Of a stretch of 64,000 bases of DNA, positions 11,635 to 53,521 are shown piece by piece. The notes beneath the pieces were generated by a model. The model worked only from the letters and a program-made list of their open reading frames with translations, made no database searches and had not been told where the DNA came from. Where the stretch lies: assembly GCF_030013595.1 (NCBI RefSeq), contig NZ_CP122768.1. One strand, written 5' to 3'. Position numbers and translations under genes: made by a program. Position 1 is the first letter of the stretch. Each line of letters begins with the position of its first letter. The DNA is from Escherichia coli (lineage in GTDB: Bacteria; Pseudomonadota; Gammaproteobacteria; Enterobacterales; Enterobacteriaceae).

Positions 11635-12092
11635 TCAGGCTTTCACATCACTCACTGCACCGACCGGAATATCAGCATGAACAGGCTCGGGCGGTACTTT
11701 GCGATATTTATCCAGCAGATGGATCTGGATCCTGCGCAGCGTGCACCATTGAGGCGATAGAAACGGAAGTAGAGAATCAGCGTTACCATGAAAAACAGAG
11801 TCGGTAGAGCAATCATAATAAACTGCATACCTAATAGGGCTTGCGTAGACTGTTCAACATTCGGTACATAGCCAATCATCCCTAACACAACCGCAATGAA
11901 AAAAGCCGCAAAGGCTGAACCGCCCTTCACCACCATAGTCTGCACGGAGTAAGCGATGCTTTCACAGCGTACGTGCAGTTTATATTCACCGTAATCAACG
12001 GTATCTGCCACCATGATGACCTGTAATACCCAGAAAAGCGCCGTTCCCACATTCAGCAAGATACCCGCAATCACAATGAGGACGACGTTGTG
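11635..12092 (-). pseudogene. melB: melB 3' fragment (melibiose:Na+ symporter), separated from its 5' part by IS1 and carrying a 1-bp frameshift
   Basis: Minus-strand translation continues the melB N-terminal fragment across the IS1 target duplication (HNV then [13 protein letters not shown]...). At about 11741..11747 the frame shifts; the alternate frame gives [35 protein letters not shown] and stops at 11635..11637, matching the recalled MelB C-terminus. Confidence 0.8.
12084..12092. repeat. IS1 target site duplication, copy 1 (gacgttgtg)
   Basis: Identical 9-mer directly flanks both IS1 ends (12084..12092 and 12861..12869). Confidence 0.9.
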
Positions 12093-12107
12093 GGTAATGA
12101 CTCCAAC

Positions 12108-12611
12108 TTACTGATAGTGTTTTATGTTCAGATAATGCCCGATGACCTTGTCATGCAGCTCCACCGATTTTGAGAACGACAGTGACTTCCGTCCCAGCCT
12201 TGCCAGATGTTGTCTCAGATTCAGGTTATGCCGCTCAATGCGCTGAGTATAACGCTTGCTGATAACGTGCAGCTTTCCCTTCAGGCGTGATTCATACAGC
12301 GGCCAGCCATCCGTCATCCATACCACGACCTCAAAGGCCGACAGCAGGCTCAGAAGACGCTCCAGTGTGGCCAGAGTGCGTTCACCGAAGACGTGCGCCA
12401 CAACCGTCCTCCGCATCCTGTCATACGCGTAAAACAGCCAGCGCTGACGTGATTTAGCACCGACGTAGCCCCACTGTTCGTCCATTTCAGCGCAGACAAT
12501 CACATCACTGCCCGGTTGTATGCGCGAGGTTACCGACTGCGGCCTGAGTTTTTTAAGTGGCGGAAAATCGTGTTGAGGCCAACGCCAATAATGCGTGCAC
12601 TGGCGCGACAT
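12108..12611 (-). CDS. insB: IS1 transposase ORF InsB (expressed as InsAB' fusion by -1 frameshift)
   Basis: ORF track 167 aa ending ...[18 protein letters not shown], the recalled InsB C-terminus; the frameshift motif ttaaaaaactc lies on the minus strand at about 12546..12557. Confidence 0.9.
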
Positions 12612-12805
12612 CCGACGCCATTCATGGCCATATCAATGATTTTCTGGTGCGTACCGGGCTGAGAGGCGGCGTAAGTGAACTGTAGTTGCCATGTTTTACG
12701 GCAGTGAGAGCAGAGATAGCGCTGATGTCCGGCGGTGCTTTTGCCGTTACGCACCACCCCGTCAGTAGCTGAACAGGAGGGACAGCTGATAGAAACAGAA
12801 GCCAC
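12530..12805 (-). CDS. insA: IS1 InsA, transposition repressor / N-terminal part of transposase
   Basis: ORF track 91 aa [43 protein letters not shown]..., zinc-finger-like CxxC pairs; matches recalled InsA. Confidence 0.92.
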
Positions 12806-12860
12806 TGGAGCACCTCAAAAACACCATCATACACTAAATCAGTAAGTTGGCAGCATCACC

Positions 12861-12869
12861 GACGTTGTG
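12861..12869. repeat. IS1 target site duplication, copy 2 (gacgttgtg)
   Basis: See copy 1; these 9 bp encode H-N-V of melB on the minus strand. Confidence 0.9.
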
Positions 12870-23939: not shown

Positions 23940-25031
23940 ATGCGTTTTCTGCGCCGACCAATATCGCTGCGCCAACGGCTGATATTGACCATTGGGGCCA
24001 TTTTGTTGGTGTTTGAGCTGATCAGCGTCTTCTGGCTATGGCATGAAAGTACCGAGCAGATTCAGCTGTTTGAGCAGGCGCTACGCGACAATCGCAACAA
24101 CGATCGCCACATCATGCGTGAGATCCGCGAGGCGGTCGCCAGCCTGATCGTCCCCGGCGTCTTTATGGTCAGCCTGACGCTATTTATCTGCTATCAGGCG
24201 GTACGCCGCATCACCCGCCCGCTGGCGGAGCTGCAAAAAGAGCTGGAAGCGCGCACCGCCGACAACTTAACGCCCATTGCCATTCACAGCGCCACCCTCG
24301 AAATCGAAGCGGTGGTTTCGGCGTTAAACGATCTGGTCAGTCGCCTGACCAACACGCTGGATAACGAAAGGTTGTTTACCGCTGACGTCGCGCACGAACT
24401 GCGAACGCCACTGGCGGGGGGGCGTTTGCATCTGGAACTGCTGGCGAAAACGCATCACATTGATGTAGCACCGTTAGTGGCACGGCTTGATCAGATGATG
24501 GAGAGCGTCTCCCAGCTGCTGCAACTGGCGCGTGCCGGACAGTCATTTTCTTCCGGTAATTATCAACATGTAAAACTGCTGGAAGATGTCATTCTCCCCT
24601 CGTATGACGAACTCAGTACCATGCTCGACCAGCGACAGCAAACCCTGCTATTGCCAGAGAGCGCCGCCGACATCACCGTTCAGGGTGATGCAACCCTGCT
24701 GCGGATGTTATTGCGAAACCTGGTAGAAAACGCCCATCGTTACAGCCCGCAAGGCAGCAACATTATGATTAAGCTGCAAGAAGATGGCGGAGCGGTCATG
24801 GCTGTTGAAGATGAAGGACCGGGTATTGATGAGAGTAAATGCGGGGAGTTGAGTAAAGCATTTGTACGTATGGACAGCCGTTATGGCGGGATTGGTCTGG
24901 GGTTAAGTATTGTCAGCCGCATTACACAGTTGCATCACGGGCAGTTTTTCCTGCAAAACCAGCAAGAGACTTCCGGCACGCGGGCCTGGGTACGGCTGAA
25001 GAAAGATCAGTACGTGGCAAACCAGATATAA
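23940..25031 (+). CDS. basS: Sensor histidine kinase BasS (PmrB)
   Basis: ORF track 23931..25031 begins at TTG; the ATG at 23940 (MRFLRRPISL) gives 363 aa; two TM segments, H-box (ADVAHELRTP), HATPase motifs. Confidence 0.9.
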   Translation: MRFLRRPISLRQRLILTIGAILLVFELISVFWLWHESTEQIQLFEQALRDNRNNDRHIMREIREAVASLIVPGVFMVSLTLFICYQAVRRITRPLAELQKELEARTADNLTPIAIHSATLEIEAVVSALNDLVSRLTNTLDNERLFTADVAHELRTPLAGGRLHLELLAKTHHIDVAPLVARLDQMMESVSQLLQLARAGQSFSSGNYQHVKLLEDVILPSYDELSTMLDQRQQTLLLPESAADITVQGDATLLRMLLRNLVENAHRYSPQGSNIMIKLQEDGGAVMAVEDEGPGIDESKCGELSKAFVRMDSRYGGIGLGLSIVSRITQLHHGQFFLQNQQETSGTRAWVRLKKDQYVANQI

Positions 25032-25096
25032 AGAAAGCTGCTGACCACCAGCACGCTGAACACGGTAGTTAAACTTTCATAAACACGGTTTTTCAT
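25007..25096 (-). CDS. pmrR: Small membrane protein PmrR (29 aa), PmrA-regulated
   Basis: Not in ORF track. Hand translation of the minus strand from ATG at 25096 to TGA at 25007 gives MKNRVYESLTTVFSVLVVSSFLYIWFATY; its 3' end overlaps the basS 3' end by 25 bp in antisense. Confidence 0.8.
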   Translation of the reverse strand: MKNRVYESLTTVFSVLVVSSFLYIWFATY

Positions 25097-25140
25097 TGCA
25101 CTCTCCTCCGTTAACCTGGAGGAGAGTATGCGCGTCAGAG

Positions 25141-25157
25141 ATTAAGTGAACCTTAAG
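25141..25157 (-). promoter_or_regulatory. Putative PmrA (BasR) box upstream of pmrR
   Basis: Minus strand reads cttaag gttca cttaat, same half-site architecture as the eptA box, about 45-60 bp upstream of the pmrR ATG. Confidence 0.6.
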
Positions 25158-25166
25158 ACTTCAATT

Positions 25167-30814: not shown

Positions 30815-30832
30815 TTGTATTGTGATCGGTAA

Positions 30833-30908
30833 GCCGGATAAGGCGCTCGCGCCGCATCCGGCAACGATGCCGACAGCCTGATGCGACGCTGACCGCGTCT
30901 TATCAGGC
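30833..30908. repeat. REP elements (two units) between yjdM and yjdN
   Basis: gccggataaggcgctcgcgccgcatccggc and gcctgatgcgacgctgaccgcgtcttatcaggc read directly. Confidence 0.7.
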
Positions 30909-30973
30909 TTCCCTCTCATCTGTATAAATTTCGAACTACACTTAACTGGCTTCTCTTAACTGAGGTCACCATC

Positions 30974-42743: not shown

Positions 42744-43061
42744 TCAATTTCTCCGCTGCTCTATTGCCGTAATCGCCTCCACGCGTTGTTGATGACGACC
42801 GCCTTCGTACTGCGCGCCCAGCCACGCATCCACAATCATTTTTGCCAGTTCGAGGCCAACCACTCGTGAACCAAAAGCCAGTGCAACTTCACTGGCGTAA
42901 TGCGGATAATCAGTGCGCTCTGACGGCCTGGTTTCTTTATCAATCCCCTCACTCATTGACCATGAATAAAAGGCTGGCACAGCAACGCGGAATCCTGCGG
43001 TGCCAGCGACATGACCGCCCATTGCTCCGGTACGTTTTTTAATAAAAAACACCGGTTGCAT
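42744..43061 (-). pseudogene. rpiB: rpiB-like remnant (ribose-5-phosphate isomerase B family), shortened and rearranged
   Basis: ORF track 105 aa; segments SERTDYPHYAS-VALA and FGSRVVGLELAKMIVDAWLGAQYEGGRHQQRVEAITAIEQRRN match recalled E. coli RpiB (149 aa) but are joined with about 50 residues missing, and the N-terminal 38 residues do not align. Only about 250 bp separate it from the yjcS start. Confidence 0.5.
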
Positions 43062-43313
43062 TGATTAATTGTGCTCAGTATTTGCCGAAGTACAATATAT
43101 ATAATAAATATATAAAACACCTCATATTATTTACAGAAATAATGAATTCGCGTAATTTTCCCTCTTCAGCACAAATGCCTAATAAAATGGCGCGTTCAGC
43201 TCACACTTCTACTTATTAAAGTCGCAATTTCCCAATTATGATAACGCCAGCTTCAAATGACGTATTTTGCATGGGTTACATATTTACGACATAAATGATA
43301 AATGGAGATTTAT

Positions 43314-50347: not shown

Positions 50348-50355
50348 AATGTCTG

Positions 50356-50377
50356 CCGCGTGATGGCTGTCACGCGG
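50356..50377 (+). terminator. Hairpin after mdtP (ccgcgtga / tcacgcgg)
   Basis: 8-bp stem, 6-nt loop, followed by a T-rich stretch; also lies within the expected fdhF upstream activating region. Confidence 0.5.
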
Positions 50378-50476
50378 TATTTCGTTTCGTCACGTCAAAA
50401 CTGACGACAGCCTGTTTTTCGTCAGAGTTTTGAATAAATAGTGCCCGTAATATCAGGGAATGACCCCAAATAAAAT

Positions 50477-50493
50477 GTGGCATAAAAGATGCA
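50477..50493 (+). promoter_or_regulatory. Sigma-54 (-24/-12) promoter of fdhF
   Basis: tGGcataaaagatGCa: GG and GC elements with correct spacing, about 50 bp upstream of the fdhF ATG; fdhF is a known RpoN/FhlA-dependent gene. Confidence 0.75.
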
Positions 50494-50544
50494 TACTGTA
50501 GTCGAGAGCGCGTATGCGTGATTTGATTAACTGGAGCGAGACCG

Positions 50545-52692
50545 ATGAAAAAAGTCGTCACGGTTTGCCCCTATTGCGCATCAGGTTGCAAAATCAACCT
50601 GGTCGTCGATAACGGCAAAATCGTCCGGGCGGAGGCAGCGCAGGGGAAAACCAACCAGGGTACCCTGTGTCTGAAGGGTTATTATGGCTGGGACTTCATT
50701 AACGATACCCAGATCCTGACCCCGCGCCTGAAAACCCCCATGATCCGTCGCCAGCGTGGCGGCAAACTCGAACCTGTTTCCTGGGATGAGGCACTGAATT
50801 ACGTTGCCGAGCGCCTGAGCGCCATCAAAGAGAAGTACGGTCCGGATGCCATCCAGACGACCGGCTCCTCGCGTGGTACGGGTAACGAAACCAACTATGT
50901 AATGCAAAAATTTGCGCGCGCCGTTATTGGTACCAATAACGTTGACTGCTGCGCTCGTGTCTGACACGGCCCATCGGTTGCAGGTCTGCACCAATCGGTC
51001 GGTAATGGCGCAATGAGCAATGCTATTAACGAAATTGATAATACCGATTTAGTGTTCGTTTTCGGGTACAACCCGGCGGATTCCCACCCAATCGTGGCGA
51101 ATCACGTAATTAACGCTAAACGTAACGGGGCGAAAATTATCGTCTGCGATCCGCGCAAAATTGAAACCGCGCGCATTGCGGACATGCACATTGCACTGAA
51201 AAACGGCTCAAACATCGCGCTGTTGAATGCGATGGGTCATGTCATTATTGAAGAAAACCTGTACGACAAAGCGTTCGTCGCTTCCCGTACAGAAGGCTTT
51301 GAAGAGTATCGTAAAATCGTTGAAGGCTACACGCCGGAGTCGGTTGAAGATATCACCGGCGTCAGCGCCAGTGAGATTCGTCAGGCGGCACGGATGTATG
51401 CCCAGGCGAAAAGCGCCGCCATCCTGTGGGGCATGGGTGTAACCCAGTTCTACCAGGGTGTGGAAACCGTGCGTTCTCTGACCAGCCTCGCGATGCTGAC
51501 TGGTAACCTCGGTAAGCCGCATGCGGGTGTAAACCCGGTTCGTGGTCAGAACAACGTGCAGGGTGCCTGCGATATGGGCGCGCTGCCGGATACGTATCCG
51601 GGCTATCAGTACGTGAAAGATCCGGCTAACCGCGAGAAATTCGCCAAAGCCTGGGGCGTGGAAAGCCTGCCAGCGCATACCGGCTATCGCATCAGCGAGC
51701 TGCCGCACCGCGCAGCGCATGGCGAAGTGCGTGCCGCGTACATTATGGGCGAAGATCCGCTGCAAACTGACGCGGAGCTGTCGGCAGTACGTAAAGCCTT
51801 CGAAGATCTGGAACTGGTCATCGTTCAGGACATCTTTATGACCAAAACCGCGTCGGCGGCGGATGTTATTTTACCGTCAACGTCGTGGGGCGAGCATGAA
51901 GGCGTGTTTACTGCGGCTGACCGTGGCTTCCAGCGTTTCTTCAAAGCGGTTGAACCGAAGTGGGATCTGAAAACGGACTGGCAAATCATCAGTGAAATCG
52001 CCACCCGTATGGGTTATCCGATGCACTACAACAACACCCAGGAGATCTGGGATGAGTTGCGTCATCTGTGCCCGGATTTCTACGGTGCGACTTACGAGAA
52101 AATGGGCGAACTGGGCTTCATTCAGTGGCCTTGCCGCGATACTTCAGATGCCGATCAGGGGACTTCTTATCTGTTTAAAGAGAAGTTTGATACCCCGAAC
52201 GGTCTGGCGCAGTTCTTCACCTGCGACTGGGTAGCGCCAATCGACAAACTCACCGACGAGTATCCGATGGTACTGTCAACGGTGCGTGAAGTTGGTCACT
52301 ACTCTTGCCGTTCGATGACCGGTAACTGTGCGGCACTGGCAGCGCTGGCTGATGAACCTGGCTACGCACAAATCAATACCGAAGACGCCAAACGTCTGGG
52401 TATTGAAGATGAGGCATTGGTTTGGGTGCACTCGCGTAAAGGCAAAATTATCACCCGTGCGCAGGTCAGCGATCGTCCGAACAAAGGGGCGATTTATATG
52501 ACCTACCAGTGGTGGATTGGTGCCTGTAACGAGCTGGTTACCGAAAACTTAAGCCCGATTACGAAAACGCCGGAATACAAATACTGCGCCGTGCGCGTCG
52601 AGCCGATCGCCGATCAGCGCGCCGCCGAGCAGTACGTGATTGACGAGTACAACAAGTTGAAAACTCGCCTGCGCGAAGCGGCACTGGCGTAA
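50545..52692 (+). CDS. fdhF: Formate dehydrogenase H, selenocysteine-containing molybdoenzyme (in-frame UGA at 50962..50964 read as Sec)
   Basis: ORF track splits this into 50545..50964 and 51013..52692 in the same frame; the only interruption is TGA at 50962..50964 (...NNVDCCARV-U-HGPSVAGLHQSVGNG...); N-terminal Fe-S Cys motif CPYCASGC; total 715 codons. Confidence 0.93.
50962..51005 (+). other. Selenocysteine UGA codon plus downstream SECIS stem-loop
   Basis: tga cacggcccatcggttgcaggtctgcaccaatcggtcggtaatggc: a hairpin-forming segment immediately 3' of the in-frame UGA, matching the recalled fdhF SECIS. Confidence 0.85.
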
Positions 52693-52706
52693 TACAGTCC
52701 TTTCTA

Positions 52707-52733
52707 CAGCCTCCTTCCGGAGGCTGTTTTTTT
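52707..52733 (+). terminator. Rho-independent terminator of fdhF
   Basis: cagcctcc / ttcc / ggaggctg followed by ttttttt. Confidence 0.85.
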
Positions 52734-52785
52734 ATCCATTCGAACTCTTTATACTGGTTACTCCCTACCCAATCGTATTATCAAA

Positions 52786-53475
52786 ATGAAAAAAATTATC
52801 GCATTGATGTTGTTTTTGACATTCTTTGCCCACGCGAACGACTCCGAGCCTGGCAGCCAGTATTTAAAGGCAGCAGAAGCCGGGGACCGACGCGCACAAT
52901 ATTTTCTTGCCGACAGCTGGTTTAGCTCCGGCGATTTGAGCAAAGCCGAATATTGGGCACAGAAAGCCGCCGACAGCGGTGATGCTGATGCCTGCGCGCT
53001 GTTGGCGCAGATCAAAATCACCAATCCGGTCAGTCTGGACTATCCACAAGCAAAAGTTCTTGCAGAGAAAGCGGCGCAAGCGGGCAGTAAAGAAGGTGAA
53101 GTAACGCTGGCGCATATTCTGGTAAATACTCAAGCGGGTAAACCGGATTATCCAAAGGCAATTTCGCTGTTAGAAAACGCCTCGGAAGATCTGGAGAACG
53201 ACTCTGCCGTCGATGCCCAAATGCTGCTTGGTTTGATTTACGCCAACGGCGTGGGCATTAAGGCCGACGATGACAAGGCAACCTGGTATTTCAAACGCAG
53301 CTCTGCGATTTCACGAACCGGTTATTCCGAGTACTGGGCGGGAATGATGTTCTTAAACGGTGAAGAAGGTTTTATCGAGAAGAACAAACAAAAGGCGCTG
53401 CACTGGCTGAACCTGAGCTGTATGGAAGGGTTTGATACCGGGTGTGAAGAGTTTGAAAAATTAACTAACGGTTAA
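52786..53475 (+). CDS. yjcO: Periplasmic Sel1/TPR-like repeat protein
   Basis: ORF track 229 aa; signal peptide; repeated 36-residue Sel1-like units (AQYxLAxxWFSSGD, AxxLLGLIYANGVG, ...). Confidence 0.88.
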   Translation: MKKIIALMLFLTFFAHANDSEPGSQYLKAAEAGDRRAQYFLADSWFSSGDLSKAEYWAQKAADSGDADACALLAQIKITNPVSLDYPQAKVLAEKAAQAGSKEGEVTLAHILVNTQAGKPDYPKAISLLENASEDLENDSAVDAQMLLGLIYANGVGIKADDDKATWYFKRSSAISRTGYSEYWAGMMFLNGEEGFIEKNKQKALHWLNLSCMEGFDTGCEEFEKLTNG

Positions 53476-53478
53476 GGT

Positions 53479-53513
53479 AGGCCTGATAAGACGCGTTAAG
53501 CGTCGCATCAGGC
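53479..53513. repeat. REP element between convergent yjcO and gltP
   Basis: aggcctgataagacgcgttaagcgtcgcatcaggc read directly. Confidence 0.7.
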
Positions 53514-53521
53514 ATCCACAC

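Follow-up and report, generated by a model that had tools for sequence, protein, structure and literature searches.

The analyzed stretch of DNA (64 kb, hereafter the window) carries what is almost certainly the textbook E. coli fdhF gene, in which the in-frame UGA codon 140 is read as selenocysteine by means of a SECIS element. On the + strand, the reading frame extends from the ATG at 50545 to the TAA at 52690..52692 and contains a single internal stop, the TGA at 50962..50964; it comprises 716 codons and gives 715 residues when codon 140 is read through. A mechanical ORF list splits the same region into 50545..50964 (139 aa) and 51013..52692 (559 aa, with an internal ATG as its start). Both this list and the translation agree with the initial annotation, which had described fdhF as two ORFs broken only by this TGA and had proposed that selenocysteine read-through yields a single 715-residue formate dehydrogenase H.

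Protein comparisons were run with a placeholder Cys at residue 140. The read-through protein shares 715 of 715 residues with the E. coli formate dehydrogenase H represented by PDB entries 1aa6, 1fdi, 1fdo, 2iv2 and 7z0t, and the non-standard residue X (selenocysteine) at position 140 of chain 1aa6_A aligns exactly to the TGA. The alignment to known fdhF, which had been suggested as a check, bears out the single chain. The protein also matches the NCBIfam model TIGR01591 (formate dehydrogenase subunit alpha) over profile positions 1-672 of 672 with a score of 1095.7 bits (cutoff 666.25). At the DNA level, many E. coli chromosomes match the region 50400-52800 with 100% identity. This DNA was found in 5419 of the 5426 complete E. 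coli genomes, and fdhF is missing from the other seven. In RefSeq/PGAP, the identical DNA is annotated as one 2148-nt fdhF CDS, which is named 'selenocysteine-containing' in some records, and the neighboring genes are mdtNOP upstream and yjcO, gltP and nrf downstream. The initial annotation had warned that an annotator relying on stop codons would mis-split the gene; this holds for a naive ORF caller and not for RefSeq/PGAP, which already has the single CDS. The coordinates of fdhF and associated features are collected in Table 1. Records labelled as plasmids account for four of the fdhF matches among complete E. coli genomes and for a few of those to selC or selD.

Table 1. Location of fdhF, its recoding signals and other features in the 64-kb window.
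Feature	Position	Strand	Basis
fdhF CDS (formate dehydrogenase H), 715 codons plus TAA, codon 140 UGA = selenocysteine (almost certain)	50545..52692	+	Translation, PDB identity, TIGR01591, RefSeq
UGA codon 140, selenocysteine codon, next base C	50962..50964	+	Sequence; aligns with X140 of the crystallized protein
Full SECIS element (Rfam SECIS_2), with the UGA within its lower stem	50957..51011	+	Covariance model, MFE fold
17-nt upper stem-loop GGUUGCAGGUCUGCACC, minimal SelB-binding part	50976..50992	+	Sequence, fold, literature
Sigma-54-type (-24/-12) promoter-like motif TGGCATAAAAGATGCA	50478..50493	+	Read from sequence; 67 nt upstream of the fdhF ATG
Intrinsic-terminator-like hairpin with T-run	about 52706-52737	+	14 nt after the fdhF stop codon
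Terminator-like hairpin of mdtP	50354-50379		
IS1 element, 768 bp, inserted in melB (melibiose:sodium transporter)	12093-12860	-	

An Rfam scan of the 64-kb window revealed only one SECIS match, which aligns to model positions 1-55 of 55 of SECIS_2 (RF01988) with 87.1 bits (gathering threshold 70, E = 1.8e-17). The minimum free energy structure of this element (-19.7 kcal/mol) is identical to the SECIS_2 consensus structure, in line with the stem-loop-forming sequence that had been noticed after the TGA. The Rfam model adds an outer helix of five base pairs (50957-50961 with 51007-51011), and the classical 40-nt element falls inside the range 50962..51005 proposed in the initial annotation. 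According to published work, the UGA at position 140 of fdhF is followed by a SECIS over codons 141-153 and is recoded in vivo with an efficiency of 30-40% (PMC4513850); the 40-nt element has a 17-nt upper stem-loop positioned 11 nt from the UGA, with U17, G23 and U24 as the critical bases (PMC8659212). The SECIS in the window has the same spacing, bulged U and loop bases: 11 nt (50965-50975) lie between the UGA and the upper stem-loop, the apical loop GGUC occupies 50983-50986 with G23 and U24 at 50984 and 50985, and the bulged U is 50978 or 50979, of which 50978 corresponds to U17 of the literature. In addition, the experimentally used minimal SECIS ATCGGTTGCAGGTCTGCACC (20 nt, PMC10945757) is present verbatim at 50973..50992. 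SelB binding and read-through dependent on SelB, selC and selenium have been established experimentally for this exact sequence (PMC4513850, PMC10945757).

Folding energy was unexceptional in comparison with dinucleotide shuffles for all segments analyzed, with z values of -0.45 (50955..51010), -0.91 (50962..51003) and -1.23 (50957..51011), and of -0.67 for the 17-mer upper stem-loop. RNA folding of 50955..51010, as suggested in the initial annotation, gave the expected hairpin, but did not discriminate it from shuffled sequences. Failure of the hairpin to fold, named there as a refuting outcome, is a weak test because the fold is not thermodynamically unusual. Base-pair covariation was also not significant in the 81 sequences (27 distinct), with 77 of 500 shuffles reaching the observed score, since the element shows almost no variation. 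In the 27 distinct homologous sequences, 95.9% of the cells form standard pairs on the Rfam structure. Changes in the stems are almost all C/U exchanges opposite G, which keep the pairing, and a single double change was seen. Two predicted pairs of the lower stem (columns 8-47 and 17-39) are often broken among the homologues. This fits published evidence in which the upper stem-loop, at its correct distance, is the only essential part (PMC8659212, PMC10945757). The case that the element is more than a chance hairpin rests on its covariance-model score, its identity to the characterized element and the frozen synonymous sites described below.

For comparative analysis, we used 80 Enterobacterales fdhF loci from one contig scan, which together with the window make 81 sequences. 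The homologues share 80-100% amino-acid and 74-97% nucleotide identity with the window, confirming that the frame downstream of the TGA is conserved as FdhF. Codon 140 is TGA in 79 of the 80 homologues and TGT (Cys) in the remaining one. In the codon alignment of the 81 sequences, only 11 of the 543 degenerate codons whose amino acid is conserved show no variation, and six of them are consecutive (codons 144-149, TCG GTT GCA GGT CTG CAC) and cover the 17-nt upper stem-loop. Every other invariant run is at most one codon long, and a run of six was obtained in none of 20000 permutations. The upper stem-loop, including the bases contacted by SelB, is invariant in 81/81 sequences, and synonymous entropy averages 0.27 bits over codons 138-152, compared with a median of 1.03 for the whole gene. 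This synonymous-site test was used in place of the covariation test, and we regard its outcome as decisive: selection acts on the SECIS RNA beyond the encoded amino acids. Within the species, 5411 of 5420 E. coli records carry the 55-nt element without a single difference. Relative to the other species and to a representative E. coli genome from the comparative set (L002), the window has two synonymous differences, CGT instead of CGC at codon 138, which places a G-U instead of a G-C pair in the outer helix, and AAT instead of AAC at codon 154, in an unpaired stretch.

Several Enterobacteriaceae carry two fdhF paralogues per genome with 85-95% identity to the query and with TGA140 in all six copies analyzed: L015/L069 in Klebsiella michiganensis, L040/L045 in Raoultella ornithinolytica and L072/L073 in MGYG-HGUT-00110. 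Both K. michiganensis copies match SECIS_2 in the Rfam scan. In E. coli, the median is one fdhF copy per genome.

These data bear directly on the other ways in which the interrupted frame could be read. If the TGA were a real stop, as the two ORFs of the mechanical list would have it, fdhF would be either a pseudogene broken by a nonsense mutation or two genes of 139 aa and 559 aa, and a large share of ribosomes do terminate at UGA140, given the 30-40% recoding (PMC4513850). However, the full-length protein exists in the PDB as one chain, and the ATG at 51013 that would start the second gene is the internal Met157 of this crystallized 715-residue protein. Moreover, a nonsense pseudogene would preserve neither the downstream frame nor frozen synonymous sites, whereas TGA occupies the same codon in nearly all homologues with strongly conserved amino acids on both sides, and the 55-nt element is practically uniform across E. 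coli records. The probability of a genuine stop is therefore negligible. It is also very improbable, if slightly less so, that the UGA is read without the selenocysteine machinery, for example by a near-cognate tRNA-Trp or tRNA-Cys, with the hairpin merely slowing the ribosome. In E. coli, termination is weak at a UGA with C as the next base, and the homologue with Cys at this position indicates that at least one lineage tolerates a sulfur residue there, both of which count for such read-through. They are outweighed by the non-standard residue at position 140 of the crystallized protein, by the match to a SECIS model for SelB binding with invariant SelB-contact bases, and by the sel genes, which essentially all E. 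coli genomes retain.

The frozen synonymous sites could in principle have a cause other than RNA structure, since the window contains an antisense ORF (50581..50994, - strand, 137 aa), whose TTG start, the complement of CAA at codon 150, abuts the invariant block. This antisense frame is open in only 27 of the 79 full-length homologues, with CTG as the start triplet in 52, and the freeze covers no more than approximately 15 codons near the SECIS, leaving the rest of the antisense ORF unaffected. On these grounds the antisense ORF was rejected as the source of the constraint, a role for which we see next to no chance, and selenocysteine insertion directed by the SECIS RNA is the reading followed here.

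One homologous locus, L066 (positions 1413-1467, MAG contig CALYPF010000061.1), is the sole one among the 80 with TGT in place of TGA. It retains the invariant upper stem-loop and scores 71.9 bits against SECIS_2 (gathering threshold 70), and its A-to-T change at the third base of the codon is accompanied by a T-to-A change in column 47, the base with which it pairs. The same MAG carries a second fdhF copy (L077) with TGA. L066 could represent a recent switch from selenocysteine to cysteine or an assembly artefact. Low synonymous variation extends across codons 138-155, including the outer helix, and this possible constraint beyond the minimal stem-loop, taken together with L066, raises the idea of a second, selenium-independent role of the hairpin, which we consider unlikely. 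If true, such a role might be, for example, in ribosome pausing or in the control of translation or mRNA stability. Alternatively, the lower stem may just tune the recoding efficiency, and the switch in L066 may be very recent or an assembly error.

The 64-kb window contains no tRNA genes and no match to SelA, SelB, SelD or selC. Searches of complete E. coli genomes with the MG1655 genes as queries found selAB in 5425, selC in 5424 and selD in 5425 of 5426 genomes. The initial annotation had pointed to selABCD elsewhere in the genome as a further check; the genes are near-universal in the species (at least 5424 of 5426) and none is located within the window. From this near-universality, the source strain very likely has the sel genes as well.

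FDH-H contains selenium and molybdenum and is the catalytic subunit of the formate hydrogenlyase complex. In the proposed mechanism, a ribosome arriving at UGA140 would melt the lower part of the hairpin, while the 17-nt upper stem-loop would be positioned at the mRNA entrance, 11 nt downstream of the codon. There, the upper stem-loop would be bound by the C-terminal domain of SelB, as described in the literature. SelB would carry GTP and selenocysteyl-tRNA(Sec), the selC product with the anticodon UCA, charged via SerRS, SelA and SelD, and would deliver selenocysteine to the UGA in the A site in competition with termination by RF2. The expected product is a single 715-residue protein in which Sec140 would ligate the molybdenum center of FDH-H. 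Of this scheme, the present analysis shows the UGA and its frame, the identity of the protein, the match to SECIS_2, the constraint acting on the RNA and the occurrence of sel genes throughout the species. The literature is the source for the binding of SelB, the mechanism of delivery and the efficiency of recoding.

Upstream of fdhF, the promoter-like motif TGGCATAAAAGATGCA has a GG-N10-GC spacing that fits the sigma-54 consensus, TGGCAC-N5-TTGCW. Of 79 homologous upstream regions, 66 contain the pattern TGGCA-N7-TGCA, and a sigma-70 scan found no promoter-like site on the + strand at this region. We infer from these sequence features that TGGCATAAAAGATGCA is the probable fdhF promoter. The terminator-like hairpin downstream of the gene has a 9-bp stem with six G-C pairs and is followed by TTTTTTTATCC.

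The window was also compared with NZ_AP022298.1, which carries a 100% identical fdhF. The two are not collinear across the 64 kb and differ by the IS1 insertion, by a deletion in the rpiB-als region and by indels in REP regions. The IS1 element is flanked by a 9-bp direct repeat, GACGTTGTG, which forms the target-site duplications at 12084-12092 and 12861-12869, and its InsA-like (91 aa) and InsB-like (167 aa) ORFs match the NCBIfam IS1 transposase. A flanking ORF of 340 aa corresponds to MelB residues 1-324 of 473 and then runs into the IS end, so melB is disrupted in this strain. At the insA/insB overlap, the sequence contains the A6C slippery motif AAAAAAC (12548-12554, - strand), presumably the site of the programmed -1 frameshift by which the InsAB' transposase is made; in that case, the window would contain a second site of translational recoding. 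At about 42881-43090, approximately 6.8 kb of NZ_AP022298.1 is replaced by approximately 210 bp of unrelated sequence adjoining yjcS. The allose operon alsRBACEK is missing in its entirety, as is the greater part of rpiB, and this looks like a strain-level deletion or replacement. In the yjcO-gltP intergenic region (53477-53515), approximately 190 bp of NZ_AP022298.1 is absent and the BLAST pieces overlap by approximately 38 bp, which suggests a repeat-mediated indel.

Two further Rfam families were found in the window. The STnc630 sRNA model matches in full length at 25000-25165 on the - strand (181.4 bits). Judged by collinearity with an annotated genome, this position coincides with the small gene pmrR, whose 29-aa product modulates LpxT activity and which lies at the end of pmrB. 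The matched RNA contains a small ORF beginning with ATG AAA AAC CGT, and the STnc630 'sRNA' family appears to be the pmrR mRNA. The naRNA4 model (nucleoid-associated RNA 4, REP-type) matches at 30826-30909 (+ strand) in the yjdM-yjdN intergenic region. In the reference genome, the same sequence of approximately 83 bp has two matching locations, indicating a repeated REP/BIME element whose copy number differs between strains.

The fdhF gene of the window has the same 715-residue protein, minimal SECIS, spacing, loop and bulge as E. coli K-12 fdhF (b4079) and the same neighborhood (mdtNOP, fdhF, yjcO, gltP, nrf), and nothing functional differs between the two. The formate dehydrogenases N and O (fdnG and fdoG) use the same mechanism, with an in-frame UGA and a SelB-binding hairpin directly 3' of it inside the coding sequence. 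Their SECIS elements have different hairpin sequences and are located at other chromosomal sites, outside the window with its single SECIS match. Eukaryotic and archaeal SECIS elements likewise recode UGA as selenocysteine through an RNA structure and a dedicated elongation factor, but there the structure has a kink-turn core and works from the 3' (or 5') untranslated region, far from the UGA, via SBP2/eEFSec. In contrast, the fdhF SECIS lies inside the ORF and has to be placed at a fixed distance of 11 nt from the UGA (PMC8659212). The recoding of fdhF is already known, and standard annotation already handles the gene correctly. This gene is the founding example of bacterial selenocysteine insertion and has been characterized genetically, biochemically and structurally. 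Published experiments on this exact sequence include 75Se labelling of the 80-kDa polypeptide and its dependence on selA-D, mutagenesis of the SECIS, crystal structures containing Sec140 and cryo-EM of SelB on the ribosome. The value of the present result is thus that of a quality check, in which a recoding site is recognizable from the raw sequence where a caller guided by stop codons only would split fdhF into proteins of 139 and 559 aa.
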